Below are positions 988 through 61,652 of a stretch of 64,000 bases of DNA, piece after piece (position 1 is the first letter of the stretch; each line of letters starts with the position of its first letter). Where the stretch lies: the NCBI GenBank assembly GCA_038064195.1, contig JBBTTO010000002.1, positions 630,615-694,614 on the forward strand, read 5' to 3'. The notes beneath the pieces are model-generated. The model was not told where the DNA came from. It saw only the letters and a list, made by a program, of their open reading frames with translations, and searched no databases. Source of the DNA: Patescibacteria group bacterium (lineage in GTDB: Bacteria; Patescibacteriota; Microgenomatia; Levybacterales; UBA12049). The translations under genes were made by a program, and so were the position numbers.

Positions 988-2751
988 TCAGAGTATAAAC
1001 CACTCATGTAACTTATTATACTCTGTAGCGTTCCAAATGTCATCTTTTGTAGCCCAACCCCGTCTGGCGACAGACACGCCGTACTGCATAAGATCCATTT
1101 GTGATACCGCGTGACTGTCCGTGTTGATAAACAATTTGACTCCATGATTAATGGCCTCTCTGACCATTTTGTCTGAGAGGTCGAGGCGCGAAGGGTAAGC
1201 GTTGATCTCCAGAGCTTTATTTTCAGATTTACAAAAGTCAAAAATCTCCTTCCAGTCCAGATCATAGCCTGGTCTTTCATTAATAAGTCTCCCTGTCGGA
1301 TGGGAGAGTATTTTGGCTTTCGGGTGACTCAGACCTTTAAGAACTCTTTTAGTCATCTCTGCTTTGGACATTGAAAAGACACTGTGAATTGAAACGAGTG
1401 TCCCGTCCAGTAGTTCAAGTGCATCATTTGGCACTGCCAGAGCACCATTAGGCAATATATCCGTTTCGAGTAAAGAAAATATACGAACACTTCTAGTACT
1501 CCTTAGTTGATCAATTTTCTTACTCCGTTGAAGCAAAATTTTATATATTTCTTGCTGAGTATGCTTAGACTGGCTCGGATTATGCTCGGAAAATCCGAGA
1601 TAGTCATAGCCTAAATCGTTAGCCTTTTTTATCATTGTCTCCATTGTGTCTGCACCCATATCGTGACTCGGTTCGATAGGATAGCTGGAGTGGAGATGAA
1701 AATCTCCTTTTATGTCTGATAGCTCGATTAGCTTTGGCAGTTCGTGTTTTTGCGCGAGTTCAATTTCACCGCTGTCTTCACGAAGCTCAGGCGGGATCCA
1801 CTCTAGACCAAGTGCGTGATAAAACTTCTTCTCATCACCGTATTGAATTAGCTTTGAGGGGTTATCTTTCTTTCTGATCCCATACTCTGAGAGTGAGAGT
1901 CCTTTTTTAAGAGCGTATTCACGGAGGTGCACATTGTGTTCCTTACTGCCGGTGAAATGCTGGAGGAGGGAACCGAATGCCTCAGGTGGCTGTACCATGA
2001 GGTCGATATGCTTGCCACCCGAGATCAAAATTGAAGCTGATGCGTCGCCTTTTTCGATAATACGTTCTTTATAGGGGTATTTCGTGAAATACTCGAGTAC
2101 TTTTTGAGGCTCGTTAGTTGCAACAGCGATGTCGACATCGCCGATAGTTTCTTTCCTTCGTCTGAGGCTACCAAGTGGATAGACTTCCTTTACGTCCTTA
2201 CTCATTTTCATGTACTGGACGAGCTTGTCTGCTATCTCACCCGCAAAGGGGAGCGCCATGCGGGTAACTTTATCAACTCCCTGGCCGAATTCCTCAAGAG
2301 CTCGGAGAATATCACTTTGTGACTTCTCGCCGAACCCCTCTAAATCGGCAATTTTGTCTGTCCGGGCCAGTTTTTTTACGTCTGCGATGACGGTTTTGGG
2401 GTCTGTGAGCTTGAAGTGAGATACCAGACGATAGGCTTTCTTAGGGCCAAAGGAGGGAATATCCATAAGCGGGAACAGAGAGAGGGGTATATCCTTCATC
2501 ACGTCATCAAAATGCCTGACTTTGCCGCTCTCCATAAGCTCGGTTAAATGTGCCCTTATAGAGGGGCCTACGCCCGGGAAGCTTTTGAGCCGGTCTTCCT
2601 TGATCAGATCTTTAACTTCTGATGTAGATTGCTCTATTGCGTCTGCTGCCTTTTGATAAGCTATAATTTGGAAGCGGTATTTTTTTTCATCCTTTATGGA
2701 ATAGGCGGCTGCTACGTGACGGAGCAACCTGGCGATATCGTGATTAGTCAT
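988..2751 (-). CDS. polX: DNA polymerase X family protein with C-terminal PHP phosphoesterase domain
   Basis: 587 aa. N-terminal Pol-beta-like HhH/nucleotidyltransferase region (IGDVDIAV motif), C-terminal PHP domain with His-rich motifs (HLHSSY…, FSEHNP…, TDSHAV). Confidence 0.8.
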   Translation of the reverse strand: MTNHDIARLLRHVAAAYSIKDEKKYRFQIIAYQKAADAIEQSTSEVKDLIKEDRLKSFPGVGPSIRAHLTELMESGKVRHFDDVMKDIPLSLFPLMDIPSFGPKKAYRLVSHFKLTDPKTVIADVKKLARTDKIADLEGFGEKSQSDILRALEEFGQGVDKVTRMALPFAGEIADKLVQYMKMSKDVKEVYPLGSLRRRKETIGDVDIAVATNEPQKVLEYFTKYPYKERIIEKGDASASILISGGKHIDLMVQPPEAFGSLLQHFTGSKEHNVHLREYALKKGLSLSEYGIRKKDNPSKLIQYGDEKKFYHALGLEWIPPELREDSGEIELAQKHELPKLIELSDIKGDFHLHSSYPIEPSHDMGADTMETMIKKANDLGYDYLGFSEHNPSQSKHTQQEIYKILLQRSKKIDQLRSTRSVRIFSLLETDILPNGALAVPNDALELLDGTLVSIHSVFSMSKAEMTKRVLKGLSHPKAKILSHPTGRLINERPGYDLDWKEIFDFCKSENKALEINAYPSRLDLSDKMVREAINHGVKLFINTDSHAVSQMDLMQYGVSVARRGWATKDDIWNATEYNKLHEWFIL

Positions 2752-2771
2752 GGGTCAAGTGTAACAAAACG

Positions 2772-2832
2772 TTGACTCCCTAGCAATTATCTGTTAGGAT
2801 ACACCCGTGCTTGGATAAGCACAATTTTTTTT
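2772..2832 (+). promoter_or_regulatory. candidate sigma70-type promoter (TTGACT-17-TAGGAT), then a GTGCTT/AAGCAC hairpin plus T8 tract immediately 5' of tRNA-Asp
   Basis: Hexamers and spacing read directly. The hairpin (2807..2822) plus TTTTTTTT (2825..2832) sits between the putative promoter and the tRNA. No plus-strand gene lies upstream. Confidence 0.3.
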
Positions 2833-2906
2833 GGGGTCGTAGCTCAGTTGGTTAGAGCGCTTCCCTGTCACGGAAGAGGTCGCGGGTTCGAGTCCCGTCG
2901 GCCCCG
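2833..2906 (+). tRNA. tRNA-Asp(GTC)
   Basis: Cloverleaf folds by hand: acceptor GGGGTCG/CGGCCCC (one G·U), D-arm AGCTCAGTTGGTTAGAGC, anticodon loop CTGTCAC (anticodon GTC), T-arm GCGGGTTCGAGTCCCGT. CCA not encoded. Confidence 0.9.
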
Positions 2907-2936
2907 CAACAAAATCTGCCCACCCGAACTAAAGGT

Positions 2937-3701
2937 ATGGCAGCAACTAAAAAGACAACAAAACAAACTGAAAATAAAGAAACGACTCGTCGGAGTCTTG
3001 GAATTAACAATCCGGTGACAGGTGCAGGATTGAATGACTATTTTAAGCTTGGCGAGTCGTATACCAGTTTGGTTCTCGGTATAGTCGTCGTCATCATTGC
3101 CTCCATCCTCTTAGTCTCACTCTTTAAGACACGCCCTACTCCCAAGAAAGATGCTCAGCAGGGGACATCCTCCATCAGTACGGTAGCCAATGCGCCTGTG
3201 ACGCTCAATCCTACTGTGTTAGTTACAGCCACGCCAACACCGACTGTAGCTCAAACAAAGCCCACGCTTACTCCCAAAGTTACTTCTGTTCCTGAAAAGC
3301 CTCGGGCAGGGTCTGAGACCTATACTATCAAGCCAGGTGATGATCTTTGGCATATCGCTGAAAGTAAATATCATGACGGTTATAAGTGGACGTTGATTGC
3401 GCAGGCAAATAAGCTCGACAATCCGGGCCTTATCAATGCGGGGAACAAGCTTGTTCTGCCTGTCGTATCCCAAACAGAAAAGCCGTCAACTCAGCTGGGC
3501 GGCCCGACTGCCACCGCACCGCCAGGTGGATCTTCGATTACTGCCAAGACATATACAGTCGTTCATGGAGATACTCTTTGGGATATTGCGGTACGGGCGT
3601 ATGGTAACGGCTACCGCTGGGTAGAAATCGCAAAAGCTAACAAGCTAAGCAATCCTGAACTGATCCACTCAGGTAATATCCTCTCAATCCCCCGGAAATG
3701 A
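2937..3701 (+). CDS. LysM domain protein (two LysM repeats, N-terminal membrane anchor, Thr/Pro-rich linker)
   Basis: 254 aa. Two LysM motifs: YTIKPGDDLWHIAESKY…LINAGNKLVLP and YTVVHGDTLWDIAVRAYGNGYRW…LIHSGNILSIP. Confidence 0.8.
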   Translation: MAATKKTTKQTENKETTRRSLGINNPVTGAGLNDYFKLGESYTSLVLGIVVVIIASILLVSLFKTRPTPKKDAQQGTSSISTVANAPVTLNPTVLVTATPTPTVAQTKPTLTPKVTSVPEKPRAGSETYTIKPGDDLWHIAESKYHDGYKWTLIAQANKLDNPGLINAGNKLVLPVVSQTEKPSTQLGGPTATAPPGGSSITAKTYTVVHGDTLWDIAVRAYGNGYRWVEIAKANKLSNPELIHSGNILSIPRK

Positions 3702-4132
3702 TAGCTCCAGAGTCCCTCAGACAAATGCTTCCTCAGATGCGCGAAGTAGCGAGACTTGTTAATGAAGATTTACCAATTCTTCTAGGAGATCAATTAGGAG
3801 AGGGAATTACTGTTGATGAAATAGATGATATTGCCGGGTTGGAAAGGGCGGTGTTTTGTCTCGAGCAGATGCGATTAGTTGGGACGTATTGTGGGGAGCG
3901 TTTGGGTGTTATGAATGAGAAAGCAAGTCAGAATCTCTTAGGGAAATTCCATCCCGGAGAAGTTATCATCTTTGAAGATCCTGAAAAAGGGAAAACAGTT
4001 GTATATCAGCCGTATCAGCAAGACTATATTAGAGAGCGCCGTTCAGGCTACATATTTTCCTCGATTACAGTCAACGTCGAAGCCGGATTAGTCCGTCCAG
4101 TAGTTATAGAAGCAGTTAGTGAGGCCCGCTGA
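3698..4132 (+). CDS. hypothetical protein
   Basis: 144-aa ORF overlapping the LysM gene stop by 4 nt (ATGA). No recognisable motif. Confidence 0.45.
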   Translation: MIAPESLRQMLPQMREVARLVNEDLPILLGDQLGEGITVDEIDDIAGLERAVFCLEQMRLVGTYCGERLGVMNEKASQNLLGKFHPGEVIIFEDPEKGKTVVYQPYQQDYIRERRSGYIFSSITVNVEAGLVRPVVIEAVSEAR

Positions 4133-4176: not shown

Positions 4177-4250
4177 CGCGGGGTTAGTACACCGGTAGTA
4201 TGCTACCTTCCCAAGGTAGAGAAGCGAGTTCGATTCTCGTACCCCGCTCC
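4177..4250 (+). tRNA. tRNA-Gly(CCC), CCA encoded
   Basis: Acceptor GCGGGGT/ACCCCGC, anticodon stem CTACC/GGTAG with loop TTCCCAA (anticodon CCC), T-arm GCGAGTTCGATTCTCGT, 3' TCCA. The first 100 nt of the supplied ORF 4200..4967 overlap it and are probably not coding. Confidence 0.85.
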
Positions 4251-4301
4251 AAATGTACGGAAGTAACCATAAACTCACATAGAGTTACTCTCAAACTACT
4301 T

Positions 4302-4967
4302 ATGACATTACTCATAGCACATCGGGGGAATACAAATTCATTCCGCGAGAATACCCTCGAAGCATTTTTATCAGCTTTTAAGATGGGGGCTGATGGAATT
4401 GAGCTCGATATTCATCTGTTTAATGGCGAAATTGTTGTCGTTCATGATTTTTTATTCAATCAAAATAATAAATACCCAAAACTTAAGGACGTTTTAAGAG
4501 AAATTTATTCAAAAGGAAGAATTGAGATAGAAATAAAGGAGTTTGATTCTAAGATTCTTCAGCCATTGAAAGAAGTACTAAACAAGTTTCCCCGGGCTGA
4601 TTTTGAATTAACAACAAGCGAAATTCCCTTGGCACCATATATCAAGGAAAGTTTTCCTGAAATCCCATTAGGACTGATTTTTCATGACTCACTTTTTCAC
4701 GAATGGATGACGCAAGAACTGGTCAAACAAAAGCTGATTGGTTGGGGCAAATTGGCCAAGGCTGACAGATTACATGTTTCACTCAAAACGTTAAAGCAAT
4801 TCGGACAAGGTGTTCTTGTAGATGAATTGCACAAATCGGGCTTTATTGTTCATTCACATATTTTTAATACTGGAGATCAAAGCAATGACTTTGCAAAAAT
4901 TTCTGAATGGAGTGTCGATCAATGTACTTTTGATAATATCGATATTCTTAAACTAAGGAATACTTAA
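4302..4967 (+). CDS. glycerophosphodiester phosphodiesterase (GP-PDE) family protein
   Basis: Internal ATG at 4302 (MTLLIAHRGNTNSFRENTLEAF…GADGIELDIHL…VVVHD), the typical GP-PDE N-terminal H-R…E-D-H motif pattern. Upstream part of the track ORF overlaps tRNA-Gly. Confidence 0.7.
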   Translation: MTLLIAHRGNTNSFRENTLEAFLSAFKMGADGIELDIHLFNGEIVVVHDFLFNQNNKYPKLKDVLREIYSKGRIEIEIKEFDSKILQPLKEVLNKFPRADFELTTSEIPLAPYIKESFPEIPLGLIFHDSLFHEWMTQELVKQKLIGWGKLAKADRLHVSLKTLKQFGQGVLVDELHKSGFIVHSHIFNTGDQSNDFAKISEWSVDQCTFDNIDILKLRNT

Positions 4968-11325: not shown

Positions 11326-11371
11326 TTTTCTTATACAGTTATTCTGCCCAAATAGATTAACTGCTCACTGT

Positions 11372-12004
11372 ATGCCAGGAGTTTTATACCGCAAAGAAAG
11401 AGAACTACTCACATTTTTAGCCCAATTCCAGTCTAAGAATGGATTTTCCCCGACTCTTCGTGAGATGGCTAATGCCACGGGTCATCGCAGCGTCTCGACC
11501 ATTCATGCTATCATCAGGAATTTAGTTGATAAAGGCTATATCCAAAAAGATGACGGGAACGCCCGTGTGTTGAAGATCAAAGACGAAAATGCTGTGCCGC
11601 TTATCGCTAAGCAAATTCAGCCGTCTGTTGAGTTGCCCCTGATGGGTTTTATAGCTGCCGGACAGCCTTTAGAGCCGCATACGGATCCCAATGCATCGTT
11701 CCAGGTCTCAGCCTCCATGTTATCCGGGAAAAATACGTCGTATGTCCTTCAGGTCAAAGGCGAGTCCATGATAGAGGAGGGAATCTTAGACGGAGACTAT
11801 GTAGTCATCGAAAAAGTCAGCACGGCGACTAACGGCGAGATAGTTGTAGCACTCGTTGATGACAATTTAGCCACGCTTAAGAAATTTTATAAAGAAGATG
11901 GAAGAATAGTACTCAAGCCGGCTAACTCCAAGATGGAGCCTATCTATCCGGGAAGCCTCCGTATTCAAGGCCGAGTCGTCGGCCTCGTCCGCCGTTACCA
12001 ATAA
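11372..12004 (+). CDS. lexA: LexA repressor (S24 peptidase)
   Basis: N-terminal wHTH (RELLTFLAQFQSKNGFSPTLREMANATGHRSVSTIHAIIRNLVDKGYI). C-terminal S24 domain with Ser (VKGESMIEEGI) and Lys (ATLKKFY) catalytic motifs. Divergent from uvrB. Confidence 0.8.
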   Translation: MPGVLYRKERELLTFLAQFQSKNGFSPTLREMANATGHRSVSTIHAIIRNLVDKGYIQKDDGNARVLKIKDENAVPLIAKQIQPSVELPLMGFIAAGQPLEPHTDPNASFQVSASMLSGKNTSYVLQVKGESMIEEGILDGDYVVIEKVSTATNGEIVVALVDDNLATLKKFYKEDGRIVLKPANSKMEPIYPGSLRIQGRVVGLVRRYQ

Positions 12005-26334: not shown

Positions 26335-27132
26335 TTGATATATAATACAACTATGAACGAAATAGGAGAGGATATTTCTCAAGCAGATATTGACACTGAA
26401 CGACTAGACGGATTTTCATCTGGCAAATATCATCAGTCGTTTGGCAAGCTCGCTGAAAGACCACATCAGAGGAGGTACTTAGAAAATGCCTACAAACGCT
26501 CCCTAGGGCTTGTACAAGAGGCTGGATGGGAGAATCCTATTGCTCAACCAGATGCTGAAGTCTTGCTTTGTGGTACTGGATCAACAGAGACGTCTAGTAC
26601 GTTTGTGCGTACCATTAGGGATCTAAATCATGATGCCAAGATTCATATACTAGACAGAGAACAATTCCCCTTGGACAGATCACGTGAGAGATTAGGTAGA
26701 GAATTAGGCGAGCAGATGGATGGTATTGAGTTCCATCAAGAAGACGCTTTGCATACATCTTTTGCTGATTCCGAGATTTCAGCCATTGAAACAGATCTTT
26801 TCTTACAATTTTTTCCTCCAGATGCTAAAGCTGAGCTTTTGAAAGAGTGGTGGAGAATATTAAAACCAGGGGGCATTGTGACAACAAGAGATTTTGTTCA
26901 GTCGACAGGCGGTCGGTTTGAAAAAAGAATTGCGAATCTCCAGCAAAGAGCGGTTGCAAGAGCTGTTCATGTTCCAGTCTATCCCACAACTAATGACGAG
27001 CTTTCTAAACAATTTGAACAAGCTGGGTTTGATGTAAGAATTATTCGAGGCAAAGTCCCAGTTCTAAAAACACAAGCACCACTATATAGCTATATAATTG
27101 CACACAAACCAGAGGCTTCTCCTATAGAATAG
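26335..27132 (+). CDS. class I SAM-dependent methyltransferase
   Basis: Motif I-like LLCGTGSTE…, and ILKPGGIVTTRDF (post-I/II region). Confidence 0.6.
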   Translation: MIYNTTMNEIGEDISQADIDTERLDGFSSGKYHQSFGKLAERPHQRRYLENAYKRSLGLVQEAGWENPIAQPDAEVLLCGTGSTETSSTFVRTIRDLNHDAKIHILDREQFPLDRSRERLGRELGEQMDGIEFHQEDALHTSFADSEISAIETDLFLQFFPPDAKAELLKEWWRILKPGGIVTTRDFVQSTGGRFEKRIANLQQRAVARAVHVPVYPTTNDELSKQFEQAGFDVRIIRGKVPVLKTQAPLYSYIIAHKPEASPIE

Positions 27133-28096: not shown

Positions 28097-28126
28097 TTGT
28101 CAAGAAGCAGCTTCGCTTGGTATAAT
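28097..28126 (+). promoter_or_regulatory. candidate promoter TTGTCA-18-TGgTATAAT (extended −10) for tRNA-Lys(TTT)
   Basis: Hexamers read directly, about 90 nt upstream of the tRNA. Confidence 0.35.
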
Positions 28127-28213
28127 TCAGATCTAGTGTTTAGGAGGTAGTTAGTAGTGTGTAGCCTAATTTAGGAGTTATTATCTACCTACTAATTTCT
28201 ACTCACTCACTTT

Positions 28214-28286
28214 GGGCCGGTAGCTCAGCGGTAGAGCAGGAGCCTTTTAAGCTCTTGGTCACAGGTTCGAATCCTGTCCGGCTCAC
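28214..28286 (+). tRNA. tRNA-Lys(TTT)
   Basis: GGGCCGGTAGCTCAGCGGTAGAGCAGGAGCCTTTTAAGCTCTTGGTCACAGGTTCGAATCCTGTCCGGCTCA, anticodon loop CTTTTAA. Confidence 0.9.
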
Positions 28287-28440
28287 CTAGTAGGACACCT
28301 GTTTCAGAAAATGAAAGAATTGCTTGATATAATGGGCTAATCGCGTGGTTCGAATAAGCAAAATAGTTCCAAAACAATATAGAGGAGAATATTGACCGGT
28401 TTGACTTTCATTTATACTTTCTGGAATACTTGAGGTAGAT

Positions 28441-29178
28441 ATGGAAAATAATCAAGCAAAAGCCTCACAACCTTTACAAATTCCTACAACACCTGTTGCT
28501 CCACGAAAACTGAGTACCCTGATAATATGCCTTGGTGGGATTGTACTTTTTGGATTTGGGATATTAGGTGGGTATATTTTATTTGCCAACAAATCTCAAT
28601 CCAAATCTTTAGACAAAGACAATCAGAAAACAACTCAAATATCTCCAGCGATTTCAACTCCAACAAAAACTGTTTTTCCAACAAGTGAGCCAACGGGTAT
28701 ATTGAAAAGCTATGTAAGTTCGTCTCTAGGTTTGTCGTTTCAGTATACAACTCCCTATGGTATTTCCGAAAATATTAAGGATTACACTGAATTAAAAGCA
28801 GATGATGAGATTTGGGTAGCATTGCCAGGCTCTGACAAGATTATTTTGCGGATTTTTTATTATAAAAGTAATTTATCCGTATCTAATTGGTGGGAGACTG
28901 AAGGATATAAAAAAATTCAATCACTGCAAGATGACTATAATTCGGCTATCCAGCCTAAACCTTCGCCTGCACTTCCACCAAAATTTATAACTAAAAATGG
29001 AACATTAGATGGAAAGCCATCTCTCGTGGCAGAGGGTGTTATTAATGCACCTCTAACACCTGGTATACAAACAATTACGTTAGTTAATTACAAAAATGGA
29101 GTATATATGTTTATTCAGCAAGAAGATGATAAAAAGTTAAGCGATAAAATCCTTGCAACGTTAAAATTTATTGAATGA
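28441..29178 (+). CDS. hypothetical membrane-anchored or secreted protein
   Basis: 245 aa with an N-terminal TM (LSTLIICLGGIVLFGFGILGGYILFA) and no recognisable domain. AT-rich gene inside the tRNA-Lys-bounded islet. Confidence 0.45.
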   Translation: MENNQAKASQPLQIPTTPVAPRKLSTLIICLGGIVLFGFGILGGYILFANKSQSKSLDKDNQKTTQISPAISTPTKTVFPTSEPTGILKSYVSSSLGLSFQYTTPYGISENIKDYTELKADDEIWVALPGSDKIILRIFYYKSNLSVSNWWETEGYKKIQSLQDDYNSAIQPKPSPALPPKFITKNGTLDGKPSLVAEGVINAPLTPGIQTITLVNYKNGVYMFIQQEDDKKLSDKILATLKFIE

Positions 29179-29366
29179 GAATGCATCTCAACAGCAAATA
29201 GAGCGACTTCAAGAATATACGAATAAACAAGTCTCCAAGCCCTCTCCAATTACCTTAGCGAGCTTTTCATCCTTCTTTTCCTCCAAGGCTTGAAAGGTAT
29301 TCATTAAGGAGTTAAAATGTGCTAGGAGTGGTTCAAAATAAGAATCGCTGGGCTCACATGAAAAAT

Positions 29367-29395
29367 CCCTTGGACTCCTGTCCAGGGGTTTTTTT
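29367..29395 (+). terminator. intrinsic terminator (CCCTTGGA / TCCAGGGG stem, T7)
   Basis: CCCTTGGACTCCTGTCCAGGGGTTTTTTT. Confidence 0.55.
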
Positions 29396-29457
29396 ATTTG
29401 TCAGCTTTCGGACAGGATGAGAAGCGACCCTTCGCAGAAGGTAGTGCCCTTGTGGTA

Positions 29458-29474
29458 AATCCTGTCCGGCTCAC
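29458..29474. repeat. 17-nt direct repeat of the tRNA-Lys(TTT) 3' end (AATCCTGTCCGGCTCAC); putative att-like islet boundary
   Basis: Identical to 28270..28286, the T-arm 3' half plus acceptor 3' strand. Embedded in a GGACAGGAT…ATCCTGTCC inverted repeat. Confidence 0.6.
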
Positions 29475-30908
29475 TCAAAAAGGCATTTCTTCATCTTCAG
29501 CTATAGGAGCTAAATAGCCATAAACACTTCCTAATATTTGTTCAGAGTTTTCAATATTTCTTGCATACTGTTGAGGCAAATGGATATAACCAATTGCTCC
29601 TTTATGTCTTAGAATCCAGGCGTTATACGCAATTACCTCTTCAATCAATTCAGAGTGACCATAATGATGAAATTCAATTAGTTCTTCGACCATTTTGCGA
29701 AGTTGTATTGGCTGGACACTTCCACGCGAGGCTGTTTGTTGAAGCAACCATGAGGCTTCACGAAAATGCTTAGGACCAAGTGTGGCATGCGCCGTATAAA
29801 GAAGATCTTCTGTATCCAGCATGTTCATCGGGTCAAAGATACGAGCGTAGAGAACTGCTGCACTTTTCTTGCCAAGATGCGCCATTCGCATAAATGAATC
29901 TTTAAATTGTTTAGGAGAAAGAAGTGCCTGTCTATCTGAGGCCTGATAAGCTGGGTAAGCAAAAAATCTAAAACCGATTTCTCCATTTATCACATCCATA
30001 TAATGGCCTTTTTCAGGAAGGTCTGCCGTAAGGCGCTGTGCTTCCCCAAGACTTAGTAGGCCACGGGTGAACCAGCTTGTATATGATGGATCGAGGTTCT
30101 TTCCAACCTCTTCGGCATCTGCCATATATTCATCAGGAGGGTAGTCGCCGAAGGTGCTTAGAAGTTGTATTCCAGGAAAACCCCAGCGAGTTGCATCAAC
30201 TCCAAGACGGTCCAGACTTTCAATAGTTGTCTGCGCTGCTGTTTGGAGGGGAGCATTACTTATTCTGGCGACCTCAGCAGCATGCTGCATGAATGTTCTA
30301 GCCATAGGTAAATTGCTATTTTGGCTCACGCTTGTACTGGCTAGTCTAAAATCATCAATATCTGTGTATTGCAAAACATGGGGGAGATAATAGGCAAAAT
30401 TCTGGGCAAAGGTCTTGCCTCCATGATCCACAGCTTGCTCTACTGAGGTGAAGTACTGATTCGGAGATATGTCTTGAGTAATTACATCAGGATATGATCT
30501 TGCAAATTGGGCTCCAACTTTTCTGCCTAAGTGTTGAAAGGCTCTCTTAGTTAAATCTGTATAGTCTTTTACTCCTAGTAACTCATCGTTTTCATCCCTA
30601 GGCAGTTCAGCCAAGTGCTCGAGAAAACGTTCAACATTGAGCGTACCATGTTGTCTGGCAATATACCCAAGGGCTTCGGTCAGGTTGCTATCCCAAAAAG
30701 ACTCTCCGGAAAAGGAATTAGCATATTCAGCTATACCTTTTAATGCATGACTCTCGTCTATGGGAGTCTTCACCCCTGCCTCACGACGCATTTTATTAGC
30801 GAAGCTTTCTCCAGCTGTTGCAAACAAGATGTCTTCAAACTCGGCTCGCATGCGCAGTATTATACACCCTTTAGTACCTAATACGATTGCTTTCCCGCGT
30901 ATTATCAC
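29475..30908 (-). CDS. hypothetical protein
   Basis: 477 aa with no recognisable motif. Its stop codon abuts the tRNA-Lys repeat. Divergent from uvrA with a ~24-nt spacer, or ~80 nt if it starts at internal M20. Confidence 0.45.
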
Positions 30909-30932
30909 CTATAATCTTTAATTGCCAATTTT

Positions 30933-55505: not shown

Positions 55506-56291
55506 TTAATAATTATTAGAACATTCATGCCCATAAATCTCTTTAGGGATTTTGTATTGCTGAACAGGCTTACAAGAAATTATATTTTGTCCAGTCCACA
55601 CTTCTTGCCATTGTCCATTGACCTTTACTGCATACCAAGCTGCACCTCCAGCATATCCACCCACTCCACCAGTAGCATAGTTTCCTACTAACTTACTTAC
55701 ACTCACCATAGTATTCGGGTCATTTTTAGGATTAATCACGGGAGCTAACTCTTTTCGCCAAGCCAATTCTTGTTCATCAACTGTGCCGCAAAAAAAACTT
55801 CCAAAAGGGTCAGACTGAGGAGACAAGCCAATTAAACACTTAACATCATTAAGTTCATATCCATAATTTGTAGCTAAGGAATTTTTCTTATCGTTTGCCC
55901 TACTAAGATTAAAGCCATTTTTTACAAAGAAATTTTCACCCGTAGACTGGAGTGGCTGTAAGGATGTTTCTGTAATCTCACTGATATCAGAAAAGTTACC
56001 ATATTTGCCCATATAATTGTTTGCAAATGTACCAATTCCAAAGCGATACCCTTTTAAAGGAACAACCTGATTATTTGCATCAATCCAATCAATACTTTTA
56101 GTCTCAATGATTGGAGCTGTAGTCGAAATAGTCCTTTGTAAGGAGGATAGTGTTGACTGTGCTGACGTAGTGGTTGAATTTGAAGCTGTGTTATTGTTTC
56201 GTAGCAAATATATCCCTAATAATCCCAGAAGAACAATTAGAGCTATTCCTAATAATTTTGTGTTTCCTATTTTTGTCTTTTTCTTTCCCAC
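55506..56291 (-). CDS. hypothetical secreted/membrane-anchored protein
   Basis: 261 aa with an N-terminal TM (LLGIALIVLLGLLGIYLL), Ser/Thr-rich linker and Gly/Tyr-rich C-terminus. Confidence 0.45.
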   Translation of the reverse strand: MGKKKTKIGNTKLLGIALIVLLGLLGIYLLRNNNTASNSTTTSAQSTLSSLQRTISTTAPIIETKSIDWIDANNQVVPLKGYRFGIGTFANNYMGKYGNFSDISEITETSLQPLQSTGENFFVKNGFNLSRANDKKNSLATNYGYELNDVKCLIGLSPQSDPFGSFFCGTVDEQELAWRKELAPVINPKNDPNTMVSVSKLVGNYATGGVGGYAGGAAWYAVKVNGQWQEVWTGQNIISCKPVQQYKIPKEIYGHECSNNY

Positions 56292-56375
56292 AAATTCAGT
56301 ATGACATAGAAATAGTAAAAATCAATAGAATTGCCAGGTTCGAGTGCGGTCTTGGGGTGAAGTAGTTTGATATAT

Positions 56376-56672
56376 TTACCTGAGGTTAATTTTACTTTTA
56401 CTTAGAGTTTTAAGTTTTTGTAAGTCGCCATTGATTAGCGCCTCTTTTTTAGCTCTCGACCAGCCTTTAAGCTGAGTTTCTCGATGCATTGCTTCAAGCC
56501 TAGTAGCATATTCCTCACTATAATCAAGCTGGAAACCATGACTATCTTTTGTGAACTTTGCTGCTTTCCAATCTTTTGTTATATGCTGCTTGGTCCGAGC
56601 GTTAATATTATTTGTTTGGCCAACATATAGCTCGTTAGAAGAACTTCGAAGAATGTAGACAAAGTAGGGCAC
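56376..56672 (-). CDS. small standalone GIY-YIG nuclease family protein (GTG start)
   Basis: PYFVYILRSSSNELYVGQTNNINARTKQH…. More divergent than the other two paralogs. AAGGAG lies 14 nt upstream of the GTG. Confidence 0.65.
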   Translation of the reverse strand: MPYFVYILRSSSNELYVGQTNNINARTKQHITKDWKAAKFTKDSHGFQLDYSEEYATRLEAMHRETQLKGWSRAKKEALINGDLQKLKTLSKSKINLR

Positions 56673-56761
56673 AGATAGTTCTTCGACTCCTTTCAGTCGC
56701 TCAGAACATTCGCCTCGCTTTTAAATGGTTGGAAACCATGAGCGAGCAAGGCGAGTCGAAT

Positions 56762-56800
56762 GGGTAGGGTAGCGAATGATGTCCGGACTTATTATAGCAA
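56762..56800. repeat. 39-nt repeat, copy 2 (identical to 55406..55444)
   Basis: Lies about 90–130 nt upstream (minus sense) of the GIY-YIG gene 56376..56672. Confidence 0.7.
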
Positions 56801-56846
56801 TCTCAAAGCACAAGAGTTAGTGTTTTATCAAACGGCATTTCCAAGT

Positions 56847-57500
56847 TTATGAGGACTTTTCGTTGTAAATCTTATATTTGCCGTCACCAATAATGCTTAC
56901 TTTGTTGTCTTGCACTAGGACTGCAGCATAGTCATCAACAGCGTAAATTTGATTTTGTGTTGTTTTACTATATTCCCCAACCGACTCATAGGAAATCATA
57001 TCTGGAACGTGGGGTGAAAACTCAAAATCAACAACACTTAATCCTGTAAAATCTTGCATTCCTATATTATTTACATCTCCAGGCTCAACACCAGCAATTG
57101 CGATAGTTGGAGTCACTACAATCCCACCTGCACTTACACCAATATATAACTTATTCTCTGAAAGAAACTTTTTCAGTGCTCCTTCAAATCCACTTTTTCG
57201 CATCCAATCGAGAAGAAAAAAGGTGTTTCCACCGTTCACAAAAAGCATATCCTTTGAAGAAAGCAATTTCTTAAGCTCATCTTGATTTATGTTTCGTAAG
57301 TCCAGGTTTTCAATATTGGTAATGCCTTGTTGGCTAAGTTGGTCTCTAAATTTCCCAAACCAATCTGGGTTACTCTCGTCACCGTATGCTGCTGTTATGT
57401 CAAAGGCAACAGAATACTCCGACGCTGGTTTCTGAAGAAGGGTAGGAAATATATCAACTATTTTTCCTCTTATACCATTGGATGTAAGAAGAAGCGTCAT
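56847..57500 (-). CDS. peptidase S51 (dipeptidase E-like)
   Basis: FVNGGNTFFLL and GVSAGG motifs. 217 aa. Confidence 0.7.
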   Translation of the reverse strand: MTLLLTSNGIRGKIVDIFPTLLQKPASEYSVAFDITAAYGDESNPDWFGKFRDQLSQQGITNIENLDLRNINQDELKKLLSSKDMLFVNGGNTFFLLDWMRKSGFEGALKKFLSENKLYIGVSAGGIVVTPTIAIAGVEPGDVNNIGMQDFTGLSVVDFEFSPHVPDMISYESVGEYSKTTQNQIYAVDDYAAVLVQDNKVSIIGDGKYKIYNEKSS

Positions 57501-58702: not shown

Positions 58703-58939
58703 ATGTTTTATACATATGTATTAAAGAGTTTATTCGATAATAAGTTATACGTGGGTTTTACTGATAATATAGAACGAAGGTTAGACGAGCATAATAATGG
58801 TCTAGTAACTGCAACAAAATCGAGGAGACCTTTAAAATTAATCTATTATGAAGCTACTCTTAGTCAAGAAAAAGCCATAATGAGAGAGAAATATTTTAAA
58901 TCTGGTTTCGGGAGAAATTTTTTGAAAACAAGAATATAA
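58703..58939 (+). CDS. small standalone GIY-YIG nuclease family protein
   Basis: MFYTYVLKSLFDNKLYVGFTDNIERRLDEHNNGLV…IYYEA…R. Clear paralog of 43852..44118. Stop 6 nt before tRNA-Arg(TCT). Confidence 0.75.
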   Translation: MFYTYVLKSLFDNKLYVGFTDNIERRLDEHNNGLVTATKSRRPLKLIYYEATLSQEKAIMREKYFKSGFGRNFLKTRI

Positions 58940-58945
58940 TTATTT

Positions 58946-59018
58946 GCGCCTGTAGCTCAGCGGATAGAGCATGTCGGTTCTAACGACGGGGTCGGGGGTT
59001 CGAATCCCTCCAGGCGTA
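58946..59018 (+). tRNA. tRNA-Arg(TCT)
   Basis: GCGCCTGTAGCTCAGCGGATAGAGCATGTCGGTTCTAACGACGGGGTCGGGGGTTCGAATCCCTCCAGGCGTA, anticodon loop GTTCTAA. Same G1·U72 acceptor as tRNA-Arg(TCG). Confidence 0.8.
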
Positions 59019-59021
59019 CTC

Positions 59022-59059
59022 AAAAAATCTCTTGAACTGAAGGTTCAGGAGATTTTTTT
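59022..59059. terminator. bidirectional intrinsic terminator (A6 – TCTCTTGAAC/GTTCAGGAGA stem – T7)
   Basis: Read directly, immediately 3' of tRNA-Arg(TCT). Confidence 0.55.
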
Positions 59060-59060
59060 G

Positions 59061-59220
59061 ACTATAATGGGGATTCGAACGGCCGGACTGAACGAGGAAG
59101 TCTCCTGACTGACGAAGTGAGGGAGGCGGGGTCGCGGGGATCGCGAAGCGATAACCTGTGACTCGAATCCTTGACTGCCTACCAGCCAATTCCCAGACGC
59201 GCTAAGCTTCTCAACATCCT
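59061..59220 (+). other. GC-rich ~150-bp non-coding element of unknown nature, preceded by TGacTATAAT
   Basis: Marked GC enrichment versus flanks. Contains a T-arm-like GGGGATTCGAACGGCC on the opposite strand and several short GC hairpins. No ORF with coding character. Does not fold as a tRNA by hand. Confidence 0.3.
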
Positions 59221-59286
59221 TAATTGACAAAAAAAGGTGTTCGATATACTATTGTAAAGGAATAGTGAACCTAGTGCTTTTAAATT

Positions 59287-60279
59287 GTGATTCATCGTTT
59301 TTATAAATATCTTCTCAGTAACCAAGTAATTTTTGCTTTGTTCTTGGTTATTTTTGGCTGGCTACTCTTCCAAACCCGAGGGATTATTACCTCAATTTTT
59401 ATTGCCTATATTATTAACGCTGCGTTGCTTCCGGTTGTACGATATCTTAGGAAGAAAGGCGTGCCACATTTCTTATCTGTTTTTATCCCATTTATTGCCA
59501 TCATTATTGTTATTTTCATGATTATATTTCCCTTAATTCCTTTTATTGTTGACCAAATTAAAGCACTTTTGGCGGGGCTTCCCGGGTATGTCAAACAGGC
59601 AGCTGATATATCCGGCTTATCAGTTGATGCTAATCAAATTCAATCTTATGTTTCTCGAGAAATAGGATCTATTGGCAGTAATGCTTTTAGCGTTACCAGT
59701 AAAGTCTTCGGAGGCTTGTTCTCAACCTTAACAGTCTTGGTGGTTAGCTTTTATTTGATTTTGTACCATGACCGCTTTAAACAAAATATCGCTCAACTAT
59801 TTCATAAAGATGAACGGGAAAGAGTCGTTAACACCTTAAGTCTAGTTGATGACAAATTAGGAGCATGGTTATCAGGTCAAATTGTACTCTCGCTTTTTAT
59901 CGGTATTATTACCTGGATTGCCTTAAGTGCTATTGGGCTGCCATACGCTGTACCACTGGCTATCTTAGCGGGAATTTTGGAGATTGTCCCAACGATTGGA
60001 CCGATTATTTCAGCTATTCCAGCAATTGTTGTTGCCTTGACGGTTTCACCCCCTTTAGCAATTATCGTCGCTCTCATCTACTTTGGAATTCAAATGATAG
60101 AAAATAATCTACTAGTTCCAAAAATTATGCAGCGAGCAGTCGGCTTAAATCCGGTGATTGTTATCCTCGCTGTTATGATTGGGGCCAACTTAATGGGTGT
60201 TATCGGGGCTTTATTGGCAGTACCATTTGTCTCCTTTATTATGGTGTTATTTAGGAGCCTGGCTGAAGACACAAATTAA
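59287..60279 (+). CDS. AI-2E family transporter (PerM / UPF0118)
   Basis: 330 aa with 7–8 TM helices and the conserved family layout. Confidence 0.75.
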   Translation: MIHRFYKYLLSNQVIFALFLVIFGWLLFQTRGIITSIFIAYIINAALLPVVRYLRKKGVPHFLSVFIPFIAIIIVIFMIIFPLIPFIVDQIKALLAGLPGYVKQAADISGLSVDANQIQSYVSREIGSIGSNAFSVTSKVFGGLFSTLTVLVVSFYLILYHDRFKQNIAQLFHKDERERVVNTLSLVDDKLGAWLSGQIVLSLFIGIITWIALSAIGLPYAVPLAILAGILEIVPTIGPIISAIPAIVVALTVSPPLAIIVALIYFGIQMIENNLLVPKIMQRAVGLNPVIVILAVMIGANLMGVIGALLAVPFVSFIMVLFRSLAEDTN

Positions 60280-60932: not shown

Positions 60933-61652
60933 TCAAGAATGAGCTTGTGTGTTATTAGAATTAGTACACACATGAAAAACAGTCGGTTTATGAGTTAAGA
61001 CTTTATCGGAAGGTACTATTTTATTTTCGACTACAAAATTAATACTTTCATTCTTTGCTTGCTCTACCAAAACCTCACGTAAGATTTGTATAACTTGCGG
61101 ATTAAATACCTGCCCAGCCTTATGGACGTTTACGTAAGTGTTCTCACCAGTTAAGACAAAGTATCCATTTGGATCTATGTCAAAGGCAGCTCCAGCAAGA
61201 TGACTACTTTCGCGAGGTGGGGCTGCAAAATACGCCCCTTCTCCTGTAGTTAAAGATGTCTGTAGCTTTTCAGTTCGATACAGACTGGTAATCGCGAGAC
61301 GAATAGTATCAGGATTAAGTCCATATTCTTTCATTTTTTGTGCCCAGAGAAGTGAAATTTCTTCCATCTTTGAAAGCGCTTCAGGTCGCAACTCATCTGG
61401 TTCAGGCTCAAGACCTTTGTCATCTGCTTTTCTTAGTCGCCATATCAACTGATAGTAACTACCTTCATGGGGAACCTTTACAAATGTATTTTCAGGAACT
61501 GATTCTTGGTGTAAGTAACGCTGGTCAGATGGGTACCACTGTCTTTCACGAGCGGTTTCTTTCATAACTCGAAGATATTCTTGATCCCTTGCGTCATTGA
61601 TCTCTTTGACAACCGGAGCAACGGATTGAAAAATTTCTGCGTTATTGTCCAA
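60933..61652 (-). CDS. peptidase M15 (VanY / LAS metallopeptidase)-like protein
   Basis: SSHLAGAAFDI fits the S-x-H-x-x-G-x-A-x-D zinc-binding motif of M15 carboxypeptidases. TTG start, no signal peptide. Tentative. Confidence 0.45.
   Translation of the reverse strand: MDNNAEIFQSVAPVVKEINDARDQEYLRVMKETARERQWYPSDQRYLHQESVPENTFVKVPHEGSYYQLIWRLRKADDKGLEPEPDELRPEALSKMEEISLLWAQKMKEYGLNPDTIRLAITSLYRTEKLQTSLTTGEGAYFAAPPRESSHLAGAAFDIDPNGYFVLTGENTYVNVHKAGQVFNPQVIQILREVLVEQAKNESINFVVENKIVPSDKVLTHKPTVFHVCTNSNNTQAHS

Follow-up and report, generated by a model that had tools for sequence, protein, structure and literature searches.

In the 64,000-nt stretch of DNA analysed here (the window; contig JBBTTO010000002.1 of assembly GCA_038064195.1, from a Patescibacteria group bacterium), a tRNA-Lys(UUU) gene is separated from uvrA by 2.6 kb of DNA that holds two genes, encoding proteins of 245 and 458 aa, and, between them, a short structured element ending in an exact copy of the last 17 nt of the tRNA. 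We would read the locus from left to right as tRNA-Lys, a cargo segment (a 20-mer and the 245-aa gene), a hairpin that we call E', a terminator, a 65-nt trailer, the 458-aa gene and uvrA (Table 1). The initial annotation of this DNA had proposed that the two 17-nt copies are attL and attR of a decayed integration remnant or small cargo islet. Comparison with relatives bears out one part of this proposal, in that the DNA behind the tRNA is foreign, variable hot-spot DNA and other islets bounded by tRNA ends do exist; the other part, the exact copy as a scar of integration, found no support in that form. We consider it probable that the locus is composite, combining a hot spot of short, AT-rich ORFan segments with a trailer that resembles the RtT repeat of Escherichia coli.

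The recurrence of the tRNA end was correctly recognized at the outset, 28270..28286 and 29458..29474 being identical at 17 of 17 positions. The repeat covers the last 3 nt of the T-loop, the 3' strand of the T-stem, the 3' strand of the acceptor, the discriminator and C74. Allowing up to 3 mismatches, AATCCTGTCCGGCTCAC has one further match in the window, the 3' end of tRNA-Lys(CUU), compared with an average of 0.09 matches in shuffled sequences, and no copy of their own 3' ends was found for the window's other eight tRNAs. The placing of the right copy inside an inverted repeat and beside a strong terminator stands as well: CGGACAGGAT (29409..29418) pairs at 10 of 10 positions with ATCCTGTCCG (29459..29468), 40 nt apart, and the neighboring terminator combines its 9-bp stem with a T-run, the terminator-like site that precedes this run being 29367..29388. 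As for the suggestion that the repeat may be part of a second, degenerate tRNA gene, ARAGORN predicted no gene at 29300..29480 and the Rfam tRNA model had no match there at E <= 10; a tmRNA or any other Rfam family was likewise not found at the repeat with ARAGORN and Rfam. In spirit that suggestion came close, because the repeat belongs to a tRNA-derived structured element. Two other readings of the 17-mer were rejected, namely 1) a primer-binding-site-like sequence, with the minus strand pairing to the tRNA 3' end for priming, as the complementarity ends at C74 and varies among relatives; and 2) a guide RNA (omega-RNA or homing crRNA), as the scaffold is too small, half of the 'guide' lies in the closing helix and there is no nuclease gene.

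For comparison we assembled loci of relatives and other contigs, denoted here by L-numbers (160 relatives' loci, ~2 Mb in total). UvrA-anchored loci of GTDB genomes place the window organism itself in Candidatus Levybacteria/Levyibacteriota of the candidate phyla radiation (CPR), with L013 (89%), L014 (88%), L015 (87%) and L016 (84%) as the nearest species by UvrA identity; MscS-anchored metagenome loci contributed L093-L172. These loci show that the right-hand 17-nt copy does not stand alone. It forms the 3' strand and tail of a 65-nt three-way junction, in whose closing helix it is base-paired with an inverted T-stem 3' strand; its acceptor 3' strand stays unpaired as the tail. Across genomes, hairpin 1 of this junction appears as CCTTC/GAAGG, GCTAC/GTAGC, GCTTC/GAAGC or CCTAT/ATAGG. 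In a five-copy alignment, pairing holds in 92% of cells, vs. 28-50% when the partners are slid, both sides are altered in 7 of 18 pairs, as expected of compensatory change, and the covariation score was reached by 0 of 500 shuffles. Despite unlike cargo, conservation between the window and L013 covers the final 65 nt up to the flank. Above all, the trailer occurs free of cargo: directly after an identical tRNA-Lys, a terminator hairpin, the 65-nt element and the exact 17-nt copy are found in L094 (97 nt) and in unit 1 of L096 (96 nt), the hairpin directly after the tRNA in these cargo-free relatives corresponding to the terminator at 29367..29396. The view of the distal repeat as a plain tRNA end displaced by insertion is therefore at odds with the relatives, since the same copy sits in the same 65-nt element where no cargo is present. 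In the composite model, which as a whole we hold with moderate confidence, the exact copy would be an intrinsic part of the RtT-like trailer and not the scar of a cargo insertion.

Table 1. Features of the tRNA-Lys locus and related features elsewhere in the window.
Feature	Position	Strand	Remarks
Promoter-like site for tRNA-Lys	28097..28126	+	TTGTCA-18-TATAAT, with TG
tRNA-Lys(UUU)	28214..28287	+	ARAGORN 28214..28287, Rfam 28214..28285
17-nt repeat, left copy	28270..28286	+	AATCCTGTCCGGCTCAC; exact match
20-mer at left end of cargo	28324..28343	+	TTGATATAATGGGCTAATCG; extended -10-like
T-arm-like motif	28345..28358	+	GTGGTTCGAATAAG; repeats start of right-end hairpin (29328..)
Cargo ORF, 245 aa	28441..29178	+	N-terminal membrane anchor and beta-rich domain
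Promoter-like site just upstream of E'	29290..29318	+	TTGAAA-17-TAAAAT
E' hairpin and tail	29327..29357	+	AGTGGTTC/AAAATAA/GAATCGCT, tail GGGCTCAC; degenerate copy of tRNA 3' end
Intrinsic terminator, bidirectional	29367..29396	.	9-bp stem, flanked by A-run and T-run
RtT-like trailer, 65 nt	29409..29474 (29410..29474)	+	Three-way junction; alignment and folding
Trailer, closing helix	29410-29418 / 29459-29467		9 bp, GGACAGGAT / ATCCTGTCC
Trailer, hairpin 1	29429-29433 / 29437-29441		5 bp
Trailer, hairpin 2	29446-29449 / 29453-29456		4 bp, around CCCTTG(T/G)GG
Trailer, unpaired tail	3' end of element, to 29474		GGCTCAC
17-nt repeat, right copy	29458..29474	+	3' strand and tail of RtT-like element; 17/17 identity
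458-aa ORFan gene (477 aa from GTG 30908)	29475..30851	-	Stop codon abuts 17-nt repeat
Possible third, very degenerate tRNA-end-like copy	30826..30850	+	GATGTCTTCAAACTCGGCTCGCA; MAFFT vs. L014 tRNA 3' end; weak
uvrA promoter spacer	30877..30932	+	Right limit of variable region; homologous to L014 77-nt spacer
tRNA-Arg(UCU)	58946..59019
Terminator after tRNA-Arg(UCU)	59022..59058
TATAAT box	59061..59066		Between Arg terminator and trailer
RtT-like element of tRNA-Arg(UCU), ~125 nt	59070..59193		Starts GGGGATTCGAAC (inverted T-arm), ends CTCGAATCCTTGACTGCCTACC
Low-GC3 genes 3' of tRNAs	4200..4967, 26353..27132, 55506..57500, 59518..60279, 60933..61565

The design of this trailer is that of RtT (RF00391, rttR; the 178-bp repeats of tyrT-tyrV). 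Since the 1970s, RtT repeats have to our knowledge been described at a single locus, the enterobacterial tyrT, and no role has been established for them. We examined the tyrT-tyrV region of E. coli K-12 after the trailer in L057 had given a weak Rfam RtT match (18.5 bits, the gathering score being 45 bits). The E. coli unit reads GGGGAAGGATGAGAAGC...AATCCTTCCCCCACCACCA (more fully, ..GGGGAAGGATGAGAAGCTTCG..(two hairpins)..GAGTAATCCTTCCCCCACCACCA), its 5' strand being the inverted T-stem 3' strand plus the acceptor start of tRNA-Tyr, with 19 nt of the tRNA-Tyr end recurring exactly in its 3' strand and tail; in the consensus structure of RF00391, these inverted T-arm and tRNA-end copies form the helix, and the tail is unpaired. 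The two elements are alike in that 1) both lie shortly behind a tRNA gene and on its strand; 2) the closing helix has as its 5' strand an inversion of the T-stem 3' strand and acceptor start; 3) the 3' strand and free tail are an exact 17-19-nt copy of the tRNA end, with two inner hairpins in between; and 4) tandem units occur in both (3+1 in E. coli RtT, about 1.4 or more in L096 and L064). By eye, they also share the 11-mer GGATGAGAAGC. They differ in size (65 vs. ~130 nt), in their inner sequences, in the lack of CCA in the window copy, in the presence of an intrinsic terminator and of a protein-coding cargo gene between tRNA and element in the window, and in the host, a CPR phylum far from Enterobacteria. 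Because it lacks an RF00391 score and is half the size, we term the window element RtT-like and do not count it as a member of the family. Within the RtT type of tRNA trailer, it is a CPR variant that had not been described before, and its presence explains the exact repeat. As presented in a preprint (bioRxiv 10.1101/2024.07.17.603846), RtT is processed from the tyrT transcript and is suggested to modulate the stringent response.

Elements of this kind are not confined to tRNA-Lys. Among 202 tRNA genes in the fetched loci, 18 had a non-tRNA copy of their own 3' end no more than 10 kb downstream, which in 13 of the 18 lay at 90-130 nt. The trailer-bearing tRNAs include Leu(CAG), Val(UAC) and Leu(GAG) in an orthologous gene cluster of L057, L064 and L077, tRNA-Glu in L014 and Lys tRNAs in L033 and L095; in these last two loci, a lineage-specific substitution is common to the tRNA and its copy. 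Most Lys, Leu and Val units start with the inverted T-loop and T-stem 3' strand and end with the direct copy. Minimum free energy (MFE) folds gave the closing helix, inner hairpins and a 5-9-nt free tail in 13 of 16 trailers, these being E. coli RtT, four Lys-type elements, the Arg trailer of the window and seven Leu/Val trailers (among them the L057 Leu-GAG trailer, with an irregular closing helix); the L095, L033 and L014 trailers had different MFE folds. The tail of the Arg trailer is tRNA-end-like, although it has diverged from tRNA-Arg, and its closing helix is kept by means of two G.U pairs, which indicates folding of the tRNA-sense strand. This trailer and the tRNA-Glu trailer of L014 share GGCCGGACTGAACG..GGAGGCGGG.TCGCG. 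As further observations on these trailers, the CCCTTG(T/G)GG of the window (29446..29456) is also the first-hairpin loop after Leu/Val tRNAs in L057, L064 and L077, that is, a sub-motif found across trailer types, and in L064 (20219..20382, minus strand) the trailer of tRNA-Leu(CAG) is followed by a repeat of the first ~60 nt of the unit (hairpin and inverted T-arm copy) that then breaks off, which amounts to ~1.4 tandem units and calls to mind the 3.14 repeats of E. coli tyrT.

The second component of the locus is the hot spot itself. The window, L014 and L096 share the gene order tRNA-Glu(-), mscS(-), tRNA-Lys(+), uvrA(+) and have unlike contents from tRNA-Lys to uvrA, comprising 77 nt in L014, a 1.5-kb array in L096 and 2.6 kb in the window; tRNA-Lys(UUU) itself is 100% identical in L013-L017, L027, L038, L094 and L096. 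In L014, with UvrA and MscS each 88% identical to those of the window, the tRNA lies only 77 nt from the uvrA start, and therefore both the 245-aa and the 458-aa gene are absent there; its spacer (..CCTAATAC..ATTGCTTTC..CCTATAAT..) aligns with window 30877..30932, such that 28287 to ~30870 of the window is extra DNA relative to L014. A presence/absence comparison, as proposed in the initial annotation, thus finds the insert missing at an orthologous site with conserved flanks, and the outcome that would have spoken against insertion, relatives with identical content and no variation, was not seen, since L014 lacks the insert and L013 and L096 carry other cargo. In L013, an identical tRNA is followed by a 678-nt islet that encodes a 138-aa transmembrane protein and ends in the same exact 17-nt copy. 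The array between tRNA-Lys and uvrA in L096 (Ga0138256_10012354, reverse strand, ~2437..3947 when read in the direction of the tRNA) begins with terminator, 65-nt element and exact repeat as unit 1, followed by a degenerate element ending AATCCTGTATGGATCAC as unit 2 and a 224-aa ORF with E' as unit 3. After these, the initial 57 nt of unit 1 recur at 96% identity, and the match runs on through the element start AGACAGGATGAGAAGCGA before the sequence diverges. As judged from its sequence, this array would have the pattern expected from Campbell-type recombination within terminator and trailer. The tRNA-Lys 3' flank is an accessory-gene hot spot, in itself an ordinary kind of thing.

The variable region is wider than the 28287..29457 first delimited, as it extends through the 458-aa gene to ~30870. 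This gene (GC content at third codon positions, GC3, z = -1.2) is the second variable gene of the hot spot, convergent with the 245-aa gene. That the repeat abuts its stop codon was rightly noted, while the length of 477 aa (29475..30908) needs revision: the start at ATG 30851, giving 458 aa, is more likely because it is the one called in most assemblies and because the GTG 30908 form overlaps 30877..30932, a conserved uvrA promoter spacer with homologous counterparts in relatives. We also considered, and rejected, a third exact copy of the repeat at the gene's distal edge, where 30826..30850 shows no more than a weak resemblance. The first codons of the gene overlap this weak tRNA-end-like sequence.

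The islet 28287..29457 is indeed more AT-rich than its flanks, as the initial annotation had it, with a GC content of 0.369 vs. a window mean of 0.437, within the lowest 0.75% of same-size windows. Codon usage agrees, the 245-aa ORF having the lowest GC (0.348) and GC3 (0.237, z = -2.5) and the second-largest codon-usage distance (0.307, the largest being 0.320) of 48 long ORFs. It is, as also stated before, the single ORF of the islet and has a membrane anchor, a single-sequence AlphaFold model placing a helix at residues 25-51 ahead of a beta-rich domain, with a predicted local distance difference test (pLDDT) score of 56 that is too weak for fold search. Among 5.8 billion proteins, both the 245-aa and the 458-aa protein matched only themselves. 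A full HMMER scan of 1.84 billion representatives yielded 58 remote homologues of the 245-aa protein, all uncharacterised, the nearest of which (P0003) has an unrelated gene context. Homologues of the two proteins were not found in the 160 relatives' loci (tblastn, E <= 1e-3), which for the 458-aa protein covers L014 and L096 as well, and Pfam, PHROG and PADLOC families gave no match for the 245-aa, 458-aa, L096 and L128 cargo proteins; the 138-aa protein of L013 had two weak PHROG matches, to families of unknown function. We found the identical 245-aa protein in 17 contigs, which come from several samples; one of them, from Hainich groundwater (ERZ1292617), contains the window.

Both ends of the cargo segment have counterparts elsewhere. 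At the left end, the 20-mer TTGATATAATGGGCTAATCG occurs in the 2 Mb of relatives' loci only in the window and in L128, where it lies at the same distance after a different tRNA, tRNA-Glu, in an islet of 1177 nt; that islet ends in GCGGTTCAAATAGAGGGACCGCACGGGTCAC, an E'-type hairpin in which 14 nt of the tRNA-Glu end recur exactly, and lacks an RtT-like trailer. Islets bounded by tRNA ends are further found in L118 (865 nt), L141/L142 (367 nt) and L116 (2.6 kb), and these, like that of L128, have a GC content 4-8 points below their own genome. By eye, the cargo of L118, after tRNA-Lys, appears to be a toxin-antitoxin pair of a helix-turn-helix (excisionase-like) and a PIN-like protein, and that of L141/L142, after tRNA-Glu, is an 89-aa GIY-YIG protein; both would be typical selfish cargo.

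At the right end, E' (29328..29357, GTGGTTCAAAATAAGAATCGCTGGGCTCAC) stands directly before the terminator and, with A 29327 included, folds into a T-arm-shaped hairpin with an 8-bp stem (GGTTC/GAATC core), a 7-nt loop and an acceptor-3'-strand-like tail. L096 matches it at 26/30 positions, at the equivalent point where an unrelated cargo (224 aa) meets the repeat of terminator and trailer start, and the 18-nt core GGTTCAAAATAAGAATCG of E' recurs exactly in L069, which we regard as a conserved motif because the chance expectation in 2 Mb is below 1e-3. From its position and its conservation across genomes, E' is probably the right border of the cargo segment, which would then run from ~28287 to 29357, between the tRNA and a pre-existing terminator and trailer. 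The L069 copy (11362..11420, minus strand; Collierbacteria, a distant CPR class) lies in a 9-bp hairpin ending ..TCCTCCGCAC, 7 nt upstream of a tRNA-Val, and is preceded by the same TAAAATG..CTAGG context as in the window, similar to that of the promoter-like site at 29290..29318. This site, E' and the terminator (29290..29396) together resemble a possible ~70-nt small RNA gene at the end of the cargo.

Taken together, we propose that short, AT-rich segments, mostly of a single ORFan gene, come and go between tRNA-Lys(UUU) and uvrA in this Levybacteria lineage. Cargo would enter by site-specific recombination in the T-loop/3' part of the tRNA gene, with a recombinase encoded elsewhere, and the insertion would have displaced the old tRNA end, now E', along with the resident terminator and trailer. 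The trailer itself may act on the tRNA strand as a folded RNA, imitating the T-arm and 3' end of its tRNA in the manner of RtT. The junctions left by loss would differ accordingly. If the cargo only were lost, the tRNA would be joined to the terminator (GGCTCAC followed by ATGAAAAATCCC), as in a two-step model; if cargo and trailer were lost as one, GGCTCAC would be followed by TCAAAAAGGC, leading to the 458-aa gene, as in a single-unit att model; and precise loss of 28287..29474 as one unit, giving GGCTCAC joined to TCAAAAAGG, would favor the single-unit att reading.

Several points weigh against this composite model. First, RF00391 had no match at E <= 10 in 28150..29550 or 58900..59300, and the link to RtT consists of the architecture and one 11-mer, of which ~7 nt are independent of the tRNA sequence. 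Second, the covariation comes from only five sequences, one of them degenerate. Third, E' aligns to the tRNA with a local score of 18 vs. a shuffled maximum of 15.8 +/- 2.1, alone indistinguishable from chance; because this similarity is not significant by itself, the status of E' rests on its position and on its conservation in L096, L069 and L128. Fourth, all 17 of the 17 contigs with the 245-aa protein show the context of the window, with no excised or empty allele among them. Fifth, the MscS tree interleaves genomes with and without the trailer, and this, with the difference between L033 and L114 (trailer and repeat as one unit), points to gain or loss of the trailer itself as a repeat-bounded unit, most simply by deletion between the repeats. 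Lastly, the trailer could have arrived together with the cargo.

This last thought leads to the rival that survives best, a single integration in which 28287..29457, with cargo, E', terminator and the 48 nt ahead of the repeat, is one integrase-less element that recombined with the T-loop and 3' end of tRNA-Lys; the 17-nt copies would be its attL and attR, and those conserved 48 nt its right arm. An exact direct repeat from T-loop to discriminator is as expected for tRNA-targeting tyrosine integrases, for which a sublocation rule was reportedly formulated by Williams in 2002; between related species, trailer and repeat do come and go as one indel, L013 combines this right end with another cargo, and the islets of L118, L128, L141 and L116 are bounded by plain tRNA-end repeats. 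We nevertheless regard a single integration as unlikely, as 1) terminator, element and repeat occur without cargo in L094 and L096, where ~100 nt is too small for a plausible circular substrate; 2) like units stand behind E. coli tRNA-Tyr and, in several CPR species, behind Leu, Val, Glu and Arg tRNAs of orthologous position, for which one integrase family would be insufficient; 3) an E'-type site, and no trailer, closes the related L128 islet; and 4) no integrase lies anywhere nearby. On this last point the initial annotation, which found none in the islet, can be widened: the box II motif of tyrosine recombinases is absent from all window ORFs of at least 100 aa, no integrase was seen in any relative's CPR locus, and the one ORF of the islet is without a Pfam family; the single convincing recombinase motif match lies beside a tRNA in a Dehalococcoidia contig (L075). 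An autonomous parent element was also sought and rejected: viral contigs had 0 matches each to a pattern of inverted and direct repeat, to the left-end 20-mer, to E' and to its 18-nt core, a JGI metagenome scan for the same repeat pattern had 0 matches, and blastn of the islet against phage and plasmid collections had none.

In an account of tRNA-integrated islands (PMC9897764), partial tRNA copies are described as 'attR' fragments. The window resembles such islands in its repeat of the tRNA 3' segment from the T-loop, its AT-rich ORFan insert, the absence of this insert from a sister species and the reuse of the site, and differs from them in that it is without integrase and excisionase, that the inserts are of 0.4-2.6 kb with one or few genes, and that the exact copy is embedded in a conserved structured element also found cargo-free. 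Another parallel is the 'gene capture' at archaeal tRNA genes that She et al. are said to have described in 2001. Common to these cases and the window are successive small insertions, nested decaying tRNA-end copies (in the window the exact copy, E' and possibly a further one, E'') and ORFan genes; the archaeal cases keep split or decayed SSV-type integrase genes and 40-60-bp repeats, neither of which is seen in the window. Integrative elements have been viewed as a source of ORFans (PMC2718499).

A cassette platform, with RtT-like and E'-type hairpins as folded attC-like sites, a recombinase acting in trans and the tRNA end as an attI-like site, seems to us improbable. In a way that may recall integron attC sites, some single-gene units end in an imperfect-palindrome hairpin bearing tRNA-end sequence, with helices conserved and central sequences variable; units stand in a tandem array in L096, and the G.T pairs in the window tRNA-Arg trailer indicate top-strand folding. 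The hairpin lies at the 3' end of a cargo unit in the window, L013 and L096, but most units are solitary or lie between tRNAs, the intergenic units in the tRNA clusters of L057/L077 and E. coli RtT resemble transcribed spacers, and there is no sign of excision. The window further differs from integrons in having no IntI, no attI and no R'/R'' cores (RYYYAAC / GTTRRRY), the element ending in GGACAGGAT / ATCCTGTCCGGCTCAC and the repeat being a 17-nt tRNA end vs. a 7-nt core. Should these hairpins (the 65-nt junction, E' with GGTTCAAAATAAGAATCG and the 120-130-nt Leu/Val/Glu/Arg units) be recombination sites that exchange single ORFan genes at CPR tRNA ends, E. coli RtT would be a relic or relative of them, a thought we put forward as a long shot.

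That there was no mobility at all, and that the 245-aa and 458-aa genes are vertically inherited, fast-evolving and deleted in relatives, with AT-richness reflecting weak selection on a secreted protein, is very improbable, for although both proteins are near-ORFans, the islet is fixed in identical context in 17 of 17 contigs from several samples and deletion between the 17-nt repeats would give clean empty sites, three genomes of the same gene order have three unrelated tRNA-Lys-uvrA contents (77 nt, 1.5 kb and 2.6 kb), the cargo has the most deviant GC3 and second-largest codon-usage distance of the 48 long ORFs, the exact left-end 20-mer is common to an islet at another tRNA in a distant relative, and AT-rich genes also lie 3' of several other tRNAs.

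Assembly ends at the locus have a bearing on mobility that we did not use. Assemblies (L003-L012) end exactly at the outer edge of both 17-nt copies, after 28286 and 29474 (L009 = 28214..29474; L010 = 28257..29474; L012 begins at 29445), and the assembly graph therefore branches there in at least 2 samples, perhaps owing to strain variants or co-occurring relatives. We rejected the contig ends as a sign of population polymorphism, because co-occurring relatives whose tRNA is identical and whose element has its final 30 nt in common explain the same breaks equally well.

Two observations concern the wider surroundings. In about half of the relatives, the tRNA-Glu/mscS/tRNA-Lys module is inverted relative to uvrA (inverted in L013, L015, L016, L033, L035 and L036; window orientation in the window, L014, L040 and L096), and its breakpoints would lie just outside the two tRNA 3' ends because both tRNAs are intact. 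Elsewhere in the window, low-GC3 genes (z -1.0 to -1.9) lie at once 3' of tRNA-Gly(CCC), tRNA-Glu, tRNA-His, tRNA-Arg(UCU) and tRNA-Gly(UCC), and therefore most tRNA 3' flanks here hold AT-rich, probably accessory genes; one of these, a methyltransferase (26335..27132), had no homologue in any relative's locus.

If the composite model is right, its first consequence is a caution for island callers, in that a tRNA 3' end recurring exactly behind its gene is not always an att scar and is here often part of a conserved trailer. Elements of the same design after Lys, Arg, Glu, Leu and Val tRNAs in CPR, with a helix that co-varies with the neighboring tRNA, suggest a widespread class of tRNA-end mimics, and the CPR trailers may serve as a comparative data set for asking what role such mimics play. 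As for the organisms themselves, minimal CPR genomes would acquire ORFan surface proteins as one-gene, AT-rich segments at tRNA 3' ends, segments that carry no recombinase of their own.

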